From a virus (lineage: Duplodnaviria > Heunggongvirae > Uroviricota > Caudoviricetes), in the IMG/VR virus record IMGVR_UViG_2548876939_000010: a stretch of 2,378 nt of DNA; one strand, 5' to 3'. Each line of letters opens with the position of its first letter. Position 1 is the first letter of the stretch. Below, piece after piece: positions 1-2,378 of this stretch. The translations under genes and the position numbers were made by a program. The notes beneath the pieces are model-generated. The model saw nothing but the letters and a program-made list of their open reading frames with translations. It was not told where the DNA came from and searched no databases.

Positions 1-231
1 TCAGGAGTGATTTTCATTGTTCAACCGCCCCGCCCGCTTCGTCTTACGATATTCATCATAAACTTTGGGATCATACTGAAGCTCCCCGCCAGATGCCTCC
101 TGTAGACGCATCGCGCGACCTTCGGGAACTAAATCCCCTTTCCAGCTATAAAGCGAAGCCAAACGAATACCTGCTGCTTGTGCAAGTTTTGTTTTTGAAC
201 CGAAATACAAAAGAGCGTCAGTTTTAAGCAT
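1..231 (-). CDS. dicC: DicC, small Cro-like regulator (76 aa) of the prophage division-control switch
   Basis: Complete minus-strand ORF: ATG is the complement of 229-231, stop TGA is the complement of 1-3. The translation MLKTDALLYFGSKTKLAQAAGIRLASLYSWKGDL... matches E. coli DicC as I recall it. A Shine-Dalgarno AAGGTG (complement of 238-243) lies 6 nt upstream of the ATG. It is divergent from dicA, as in lambdoid immunity regions. Confidence 0.9.
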   Translation of the reverse strand: MLKTDALLYFGSKTKLAQAAGIRLASLYSWKGDLVPEGRAMRLQEASGGELQYDPKVYDEYRKTKRAGRLNNENHS

Positions 232-314: not shown

Positions 315-722
315 ATGGAAACAAAAAATTTAACTATCGGCGAACGCATTAGGTATCGTCGGAAAAACCTCAAACACACCCAAAGGTCTCTTGCTAAAGC
401 CCTGAAAATCTCCCATGTGTCTGTATCACAATGGGAACGGGATGATAGTGAACCTACAGGGAAGAACCTTTTTGCCCTCAGCAAAGTATTGCAATGCTCA
501 CCAACATGGATTCTATTTGGCGATGAAGACAAGCAACCAACACCACCTGTTGAGAAGCCAGTTGCCTTATCCCCCAAAGAACTAGAGCTCCTTGAGCTGT
601 TTAATGCACTGCCAGAATCAGAACAGGATACCCAGCTCGCCGAAATGCGAGCTCGAGTAAAAAACTTCAATAAACTCTTTGAAGAATTACTAAAAGCCCG
701 TCAGCGGACAAATAAAAGATAA
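315..722 (+). CDS. dicA: DicA, HTH (XRE/cI-like) repressor of the dicB operon, 135 aa
   Basis: ORF 315-722 translates to METKNLTIGERIRYRRKNLKHTQRSLAKALKISHVSVSQWERDD..., with a classic N-terminal helix-turn-helix signature (QRSLAKALKISHVSVSQWE). It matches E. coli DicA as I recall it in length and sequence. No alternative in-frame start preserves the HTH. Confidence 0.92.
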   Translation: METKNLTIGERIRYRRKNLKHTQRSLAKALKISHVSVSQWERDDSEPTGKNLFALSKVLQCSPTWILFGDEDKQPTPPVEKPVALSPKELELLELFNALPESEQDTQLAEMRARVKNFNKLFEELLKARQRTNKR

Positions 723-1203: not shown

Positions 1204-1422
1204 ATGCAGAAACGAGAACCCGTCATCATCGCGCCAGACTATACCGATGATGAACTTTATGAGTGGATGCGCCAGAAAATTAATGCAGCGCAGGATCTGA
1301 AATGGGCCAATGAAGCCAGGGCTAAGCAGGCTGAAAATCTGTCCGCTCTGGAGCAGGATATCACTAATCTGGAAAAAGCAGCGACATTAAGCATTGCCAG
1401 AATGATTACATACCCGCGTTAA
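1204..1422 (+). CDS. ydfC: YdfC-like protein (72 aa), function unknown
   Basis: ATG at 1204 is preceded by GAGGA at 1193-1197 with a 6-nt spacing. It translates to MQKREPVIIAPDYTDDELYEWMRQKINAAQDLKWANEARAKQAENLSALEQDITNLEKAATLSIARMITYPR with stop TAA at 1420-1422. Length and position fit ydfC of the dicB operon. Confidence 0.85.
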   Translation: MQKREPVIIAPDYTDDELYEWMRQKINAAQDLKWANEARAKQAENLSALEQDITNLEKAATLSIARMITYPR

Positions 1423-1763: not shown

Positions 1764-1816
1764 ATTCTGGTGACATTTGGCGGTATCAGTTTTACTCCGT
1801 GACTGCTCTGCCGCCC
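1764..1816 (+). ncRNA. dicF: DicF small regulatory RNA (about 53 nt; antisense inhibitor of ftsZ translation)
   Basis: The sequence ATTCTGGTGACATTTGGCGGTATCAGTTTTACTCCGTGACTGCTCTGCCGCCC followed by a TTTTTT run is near-identical to DicF RNA as I recall it, with at most a couple of substitutions. It lies between ydfC and dicB, as in the K-12 operon. The ends are defined by processing and termination, so the boundaries are approximate to a few nt. Confidence 0.85.
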
Positions 1817-1827: not shown

Positions 1828-1984
1828 TGAATTTTGTGATGCGGTGAATGCGGCTCAGCGCACGCGGAACAGTTAAATCGGTAAAGCGGTCATTTGCTGA
1901 GTAACGAGAATGCTCTGTATCCGGCGTTAATTGTTAACTGGTTAACGTCACCTGGAGGCACCAGGCACCGCATCACAAAATTCA
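1828..1984 (+). repeat. Long-range 19-bp perfect inverted repeat (arms 1828-1846 and 1966-1984) bracketing the dicF-dicB spacer; candidate RNase III-type duplex
   Basis: Seen directly: TGAATTTTGTGATGCGGTG (1828-1846) is the exact reverse complement of CACCGCATCACAAAATTCA (1966-1984). In RNA it extends to 21 bp with a G-U and an A-U pair (1826-1827 with 1985-1986). The upstream arm starts 6 nt after the DicF T-run; the downstream arm ends 5 nt before the dicB Shine-Dalgarno. Confidence 0.6.
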
Positions 1985-2001
1985 TTGTTGAGGACGCGAT
2001 A

Positions 2002-2190
2002 ATGGAAAAGTTATCATGTAATGCCAGCACGTCTGAACTTCGTTTCGAAATTGGCGTTATCACTGGAGACAAAACATTTATTGAAGACGCCATTAAGCAG
2101 AGAAAACTCGAGCAGGACCTGTTAAATGAAGTATGCATTCCTTCAATGCTGGCTCGTCTGGACCTGCTGCAAAAAGGATATAAACAATGA
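2002..2190 (+). CDS. dicB: DicB-family cell-division inhibitor (62 aa; MinC-dependent inhibitor of FtsZ ring formation)
   Basis: ATG at 2002 is preceded by GAGGA at 1990-1994 with a 7-nt spacing. It translates to MEKLSCNASTSELRFEIGVITGDKTFIEDAIKQRKLEQDLLNEVCIPSMLARLDLLQKGYKQ with stop TGA at 2188-2190. It has the same 62-aa length and operon position as K-12 DicB and shares recognisable blocks (FEIGV, EDAI, RK, LLN, SMLARL, KG..Q), but appears substantially divergent. The ORF track's upstream TTG extension from 1894 has no ribosome-binding site and is rejected. Confidence 0.8.
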   Translation: MEKLSCNASTSELRFEIGVITGDKTFIEDAIKQRKLEQDLLNEVCIPSMLARLDLLQKGYKQ

Positions 2191-2378
2191 ATACAACATT
2201 TGCACTCGTTCTGACAGTTTATCTTGTTTCCGGCGAATCTCTTGAGCTGGTGACTGGCTTATACGGTTCAATGAAAGAATGCATGGCTGCAGCAGCAGAA
2301 CAAAAAATTCCCGGTAACTGTTATCCGGTAGATAAAACTACTCACACTAATAATAACGAAATACCGGCAGGACTTTAA
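2187..2378 (+). CDS. ydfD: YdfD-like small protein (63 aa) with a hydrophobic N-terminal segment; K-12 YdfD is reported to be lytic when overexpressed
   Basis: ATG at 2187-2189 overlaps the dicB stop at 2188-2190 (ATGA), with AAGGA at 2174-2178 upstream. It translates to MNTTFALVLTVYLVSGESLELVTGLYGSMKECMAAAAEQKIPGNCYPVDKTTHTNNNEIPAGL with stop TAA at 2376-2378. The N-terminus TFALVLTVYLVSG is consistent with a membrane-associated segment. It sits at the position of ydfD in the K-12 dicB operon. Confidence 0.8.
   Translation: MNTTFALVLTVYLVSGESLELVTGLYGSMKECMAAAAEQKIPGNCYPVDKTTHTNNNEIPAGL

Follow-up and report, generated by a model that had tools for sequence, protein, structure and literature searches.

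The dicB gene at positions 2002-2190 of the window, by which we mean the whole 2,378-nucleotide stretch of DNA that was analysed, is an intact member of the DicB family, and its differences from the gene of Escherichia coli K-12 probably reflect old allelic divergence and not decay. In the reading that we favour, a module consisting of DicF, a spacer, dicB and ydfD was joined by homologous recombination to a dicC-dicA-ydfABC segment of the Qin, or K-12, type, and the protein would act by a K-12-like mechanism. The allele is common and already named, not an unusual variant; it is catalogued, and is known rather than new. Its pairing with K-12-type dicA and dicC is rare. The window contains a complete dic locus (dicC, dicA, ydfA/B/C, DicF, dicB and ydfD), in which we distinguish the following parts; STEC denotes Shiga-toxin-producing E. 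coli.

1-231, minus strand: dicC, a Cro-like regulator of 76 aa (Pfam P22_Cro, 1.7e-11), with 100% nucleotide identity to K-12
315-722, plus strand: dicA, a CI-like repressor of 135 aa, with 99.3% nucleotide identity to K-12
889-1044, 1046-1174 and 1204-1422, plus strand: ydfA, ydfB and ydfC respectively, of Qin type, from open reading frames and family matches
1690-1763, no strand: predicted crossover interval, from mismatch maps against strain ECO2947 and locus L014 and from alignment
1765-1816, plus strand: DicF small RNA (Rfam RF00039), in the variant of STEC-type loci (A at 1775)
1878-1912, plus strand: variable spacer from the DicF terminator to the dicB leader, from alignments; common to STEC-type loci
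1913-2001, plus strand: dicB leader with a GAGGA ribosome-binding site, in frame with dicB, from alignments
2002-2190, plus strand: dicB, STEC-type allele, 62 aa, 55% identical to K-12 DicB
2187-2378, plus strand: ydfD-like DUF1482 gene, 63 aa, WP_001098307.1 by DNA match, 63% identical to K-12 YdfD

The K-12 reference was MG1655 Qin, taken from NC_000913.3, in which DicB is b1575 (NP_416092.1). The open reading frame on the plus strand at 2002-2190 encodes a protein of 62 aa, MEKLSCNASTSELRFEIGVITGDKTFIEDAIKQRKLEQDLLNEVCIPSMLARLDLLQKGYKQ, which BLASTP aligns with K-12 DicB without a single gap and with 34 of 62 residues identical (55%; E=1e-21). The 28 differences are distributed across the N-terminal half (residues 2, 3, 5, 6, 8, 9, 13 and 14; 20-25 and 27; 32 and 33) and the C-terminal half (36, 38 and 39; 43, 44 and 47; 54, 56, 57, 60 and 61), so that eight of the 14 N-terminal residues and all six at positions 20-25 are changed. 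By a simple residue grouping, 22 of the 28 changes cross residue classes. Leu5 of K-12 is replaced by Ser5 in the window, the net charge is -1 instead of +3, and there are two cysteines and one proline where K-12 DicB has three of each. Nucleotide identity to K-12 Qin differs sharply between the two sides of the locus: on the left it is 100% for dicC, 99.3% for dicA, 91.0% for ydfA, 96.9% for ydfB and 98.2% for ydfC, whereas on the right it is 72.5% for dicB and 75.5% for ydfD. At 55% of amino acids and 72.5% of nucleotides, the gene lies below the identity of about 95% or more to b1575 by which near-identity with the K-12 Qin allele was judged. An earlier note on this DNA had described DicB as strongly diverged from K-12, with the SMLARL segment (48-53) and the overall length kept, beside dicA, dicC and DicF that are close to K-12. 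Alignment bears this out, placing the differences at the positions that had been named; DicF has one difference from K-12 inside the Rfam model, G to A at window position 1775, and the base at 1764 also differs.

The features that define the family are retained. Window DicB scores 131.8 bits on Pfam PF05358 (cut-off 27), where residues 1-62 cover profile positions 1-62, and 123.7 bits on NCBIfam NF049927 (cut-off 100); K-12 DicB, also of 62 aa, belongs to the same family models. A core is common to both proteins, comprising F15, I17-G18-V19, F26, E28-D29-A30-I31, K35, E37, L40-L41-N42, I46, S48, A51, L53 and G59. In a family sample weighted to K-12-like sequences, 25 columns are conserved at 90% or more; the window protein departs from the consensus in two of them, with K3 and S5, and agrees with it in the other 23. 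Among unique family sequences, 91% have Leu in column 5. It is the variable columns that carry the 28 differences between window and K-12 (mean entropy 1.58 vs 0.56 bits; Mann-Whitney p=2e-8). The genomic setting is likewise that of a dicB gene, with DicF upstream, an overlapping DUF1482 gene downstream and dicA/dicC at 1-722. In K-12 too, dicB sits after DicF and before an overlapping ydfD, and has a leader and ribosome-binding site nearly identical to those of the window; the overlap of the dicB stop by the ydfD start (ATGA) is the same in both. A scan of the window for promoters and terminators found none above shuffled expectation.

Among the matches listed, window positions 1990-2378 are 100% identical in complete genomes of O157:H7, O26, O103, O121 and O145. 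The gene beneath the 100% DNA match in O157:H7 strain TR01 is WP_000413705.1, named 'cell division inhibition protein DicB', and is followed by the DUF1482 protein WP_001098307.1. The exact window DicB protein occurs in 10,780 blocks of an assembly collection. A sensitive search with dicB alone found dicB-like DNA in 3,777 of 5,426 complete E. coli genomes, at up to six places per genome. When the matching records are divided by identity, 504 lie at 99% or above, 24 at 95-99%, none at 80-95% and 3,261 at 60-80%, and the gap indicates that the allele classes are discrete. The listed carriers of the window allele are mostly Shiga-toxin-producing E. coli, in which it resides in lambdoid prophages beside yccA/tusE. 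Deposited phage genomes lack the allele, and the only dicB alleles present in them are 48-57% identical to it.

The prophages encoding WP_000413705.1 (beside yccA/tusE, in O157:H7 and, by DNA match, in O26, O103, O121 and O145) resemble the window in the DNA of dicB and ydfD, which is 100% identical, but differ from it elsewhere. Their immunity region is a different one, with other HTH repressors and a PaaA2/ParE pair, and a gene of 129-212 aa occupies the place of ydfC, whereas the window has K-12-type dicC, dicA and ydfABC. We sampled ten contexts of the exact window DicB protein (L006-L015), most of which lie beside yccA/tusE. In every one, a PaaA2/ParE-type toxin-antitoxin pair is situated between the repressor gene and ydfA, at about 3600-4340 of each locus; the pair is absent from that place in the window and in K-12.

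The earlier note had described this DicB as a divergent variant relative to K-12. Among DicB alleles it is not an unusual one, and DicB is polymorphic in general. A profile search returned 227 proteins, and for all of the 120 listed PF05358 is recorded; these carry the source names Escherichia, Shigella or Salmonella and are 44-100% identical to the window allele. Single-linkage grouping at 85% divided 99 full-length representatives into 14 allele groups. The others include a PPompW/Stx-phage type, a METLLLNSTTPETRF... type and the natural mosaics P0006 and P0009, of which P0006 joins a K-12-like N-terminus to a window-like remainder within the gene. Full-length representatives of these groups are about 62 aa long and have the same conserved core, and several share the window segment 'ITGDKTFIEDAI', but their identity to the window allele is 44-87%. 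Of the representatives examined, only those of the window's own group have the N-terminus MEKLSCNAS; one mosaic starts MEKLLCNAS. Clustering of 1.84 billion proteins at 50% left only three full-length DicB representatives, and the family is therefore narrow yet internally variable. A literature search found no paper comparing DicB alleles.

Between window and K-12 dicB, dN/dS is 0.54 (dS 0.56, dN 0.30), compared with 0.13-0.15 for the flanking genes; across pairs of dicB alleles it ranges from 0.23 to 0.61, with large dS values of 0.5-1.9. All pairwise dN/dS values for dicB are below one, also when the N- and C-terminal halves are taken separately, and so give no sign of positive selection. 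Judged by these rates, the DicB alleles appear to be old lineages under weak purifying selection, neither decaying nor under gene-wide positive selection. The diversity of DicB contrasts with the near-invariance of MinC, its known partner, within E. coli: 5,421 of 5,426 genomes have a minC that matches K-12 at 95% or more, and in 4,304 records the match is 99% or better. Variation of the target within E. coli would therefore not explain the diversity of DicB.

The two halves of the window have different closest relatives. Positions 1-1450 are 99.9% identical to Qin-type loci that carry K-12-type dicB, for example that of strain ECO2947, and beyond 1600 the first mismatch between ECO2947 and the window is at 1764. 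The last mismatch with L014, a STEC-type prophage locus, is at 1689, and the two are identical from 1690 to the end of the window. Because the 74 nucleotides at 1690-1763 are identical in both parents, we place the crossover within them; the exchange point thus appears to lie just upstream of DicF, so that DicF would belong to the incoming right-hand module. By this mapping the module comprises DicF (with A at 1775), the spacer at 1878-1912, dicB and ydfD. The earlier suggestion of a mosaic locus, in which a conserved switch and small RNA are combined with a diverged effector, holds in so far as the locus is mosaic relative to K-12, and its joint can now be mapped; the small RNA, however, is not part of the conserved switch but arrives with the effector module. 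DicF scores 77 bits over Rfam model positions 1-52, where the gathering score is 48, and seems to look K-12-like only because it is conserved everywhere. The effector has also to be redrawn: dicB is diverged, but the diverged unit is not dicB alone and takes in most of ydfD. The block that differs from K-12 begins at codon 2 of dicB, ends at about codon 45 of ydfD and is flanked on either side by conserved DNA; divergence fades over the last third of ydfD, and the DNA downstream is about 90-94% identical again.

The combination of these two halves may instead be an artefact, a short-read assembler having joined two prophages of one genome across the conserved repeat of the DicF region. We think this unlikely, but several observations are in its favour. 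Searches for the exact junction (1590-1782) in GTDB representative genomes, JGI metagenomes and IMG/VR found nothing; among complete E. coli genomes, none aligns with the whole window at more than 94.9%; and none of the collections searched contained the pairing of K-12-type dicA/dicC with the window dicB. The exact window DicA protein, present in 6,616 blocks of the assembly collection, is accompanied by K-12-type DicB in all ten contexts sampled, and none of the ten sampled contexts of the exact window DicB has a P22_Cro gene of DicC type or a DicA of 135 aa. The joint moreover falls in a repeat common to many prophages, with up to ten window-matching places per genome. Against this, complete genomes contain natural recombinants joined elsewhere, such as that of strain 14EC001, in which a window-type dicB follows a DicF and spacer of K-12-like form, and the mosaics P0006 and P0009 are recombinant within dicB itself; real exchange at conserved blocks is therefore common. 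The dicB allele is real whether or not the mosaic of the window is a chimera. Far less probable than misassembly is a decaying, non-functional prophage remnant in which divergence follows from lost constraint. Prophage DNA is often defective and a dN/dS of 0.54 is fairly high, but the reading frame is intact and free of indels, conservation extends to the ribosome-binding site and the coupled start of ydfD, thousands of assemblies contain the identical protein, dS exceeds dN and the family core is kept, and on these grounds we rejected the pseudogene reading. Homologous exchange between intact loci remains our preferred origin for the window; lambdoid prophages ordinarily exchange modules in this way, and the sequence feature itself matters little. 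A shorter junction pattern had no match in GTDB representatives or JGI metagenomes and one in IMG/VR, L026, which was discarded as an ordinary STEC-type locus, the shorter pattern not being diagnostic of the left parent.

Window DicB most likely works in the manner of K-12 DicB, by MinC-dependent inhibition of division, although the homology on which we base this amounts to only 55% identity. A K-12-like mechanism is favoured because the conserved core, the position in the operon and the translational coupling to ydfD are all kept. By homology, the operon would be transcribed when repression by DicA is lifted, and MinC-dependent DicB activity would inhibit ManYZ and block entry of the DNA of lambda-like phages. 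K-12 DicB binds MinC directly, and MinC mutants that lose the interaction no longer show the effect of DicB on division, nor those phage-resistance and sugar-growth phenotypes for which they were tested (PMC6832061). Binding to MinC's C-terminal domain, and a division block that depends on MinC and ZipA, are known only for the K-12 allele (PMC6832061, PMC4967827). An AF2 model of window DicB, of moderate confidence (pLDDT 80, pTM 0.49), has a disordered N-terminus (1-10) followed by two helices, a short one (11-21) and a long one (24-61), and says nothing about an interface. Searching solved structures by sequence gave only a chance match (E=0.85), and a Foldseek search of the model against the PDB gave nothing significant (best E=8.8), a two-helix model being too simple to inform. 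On a helical wheel, the separation of conserved and variable faces of helix 24-59 is a trend only (p about 0.08-0.09), which we did not count as evidence.

The one published lead towards different behaviour of the allele concerns the N-terminus. In mutagenesis of K-12 DicB, lethal toxicity was lost with every truncation tested at the N-terminus (2 to 26 residues removed), the N-terminal ~13 residues were reported as essential, and L5A lowered toxicity enough for colonies to grow, whereas K2 could be substituted and the last 8 residues were dispensable (PMC4967827). The window protein has the same length over this region but Ser5 in place of Leu5 and changes at 2, 3, 5, 6, 8, 9, 13 and 14, a comparison to be read with the inconsistent numbering of that study in mind: its Table 1 gives 'T4A', but residue 4 of K-12 DicB is Leu (M-K-T-L-L), and the identity of the critical 'L5' consequently carries a small uncertainty. 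It is possible, though we consider it the less probable reading, that the window protein is still a DicB but has attenuated potency or an altered partner or target specificity, such as weaker activation of MinC or a different phage-exclusion spectrum. Responsibility would lie with the rebuilt N-terminus (E2, K3, S5, C6, A8, S9, L13 and R14), the turn between the helices (20-25), also rebuilt, and the change of net charge from +3 to -1. Besides the effects of L5A and of N-terminal truncation in K-12, this is suggested by S5 and K3 being the sole departures from columns conserved at 90% or more, by the 22 of 28 changes that cross residue classes, and by a dN/dS for dicB above that of the flanking genes. 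The presence of up to six dicB-like places in one genome leaves room for specialisation, and pathogenic strains have been reported with several dicBF loci (PMC5069750).

On the other side, what alanine does at position 5 of the K-12 protein is no guide to serine in a co-adapted background, and the numbering discrepancy bears on that very residue. No pairwise dN/dS exceeds one, and the changes occupy columns that vary across the family while 23 of 25 conserved columns are kept. The literature search found no experiment on the window allele, and the O157 study that it did find used primers for a different dicB allele. A more specific proposal, to which we give slightly less credence still, is that the STEC-type allele, with its rebuilt N-terminus (Ser5) and a net charge of opposite sign, inhibits division more mildly or has a different inner-membrane target and phage-exclusion range. 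If so, the DicB allele groups would constitute a natural specificity series kept by phage-host conflict and not by drift, and the rare pairing with K-12-type DicA/DicC would place a different effector under Qin regulatory logic. The useful by-product of the comparison is a map of natural DicB diversity, comprising about 14 allele groups, chimeras, and a conserved core set against variable positions. Such an allelic series could cheaply reveal the residues on which MinC activation, toxicity and phage exclusion through ManYZ depend, and position 5 and the N-terminal segment are obvious starting points for mapping function.

At position 1801, within DicF, the window has G, as do L014 and L007, and several O157-type loci have A. 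The spacer at 1878-1912 exists in at least three forms (window/O157, K-12 and L020 types), and that of the window is 12 nucleotides longer than that of K-12. The ydfD-like DUF1482 protein co-varies with dicB as one cassette, and its RefSeq name is only 'DUF1482 family protein'; lysis and the inhibition of IspG are activities that it may have kept. K-12 YdfD is a lysis protein, the effect of which is offset by DicB (PMC8835842).

The dicB leader (1913-2001, the 89 nucleotides before the ATG), compared between K-12, the PPompW type, the window type, L020 and L024, is almost invariant, against differences of 28-50% between the coding sequences of dicB. These loci diverge from codon 2 onwards, and upstream the frame of dicB is free of stops back to 1894. 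RNA structure in the leader is no better than in shuffled sequence (z=-0.52). The leader may serve as a linker for recombination, act as a site of regulation or processing, or be coding. Many DicB entries in databases are 90-100 aa long and start in the conserved leader (…ALIVNWLTSPGGTRHRITKFIVEDAIM-ETLL…), among them P0007, P0008, P0011, P0012, P0015 and P0027; these are probably miscalls of the start codon, or else represent the longer in-phase open reading frame described in 1988.
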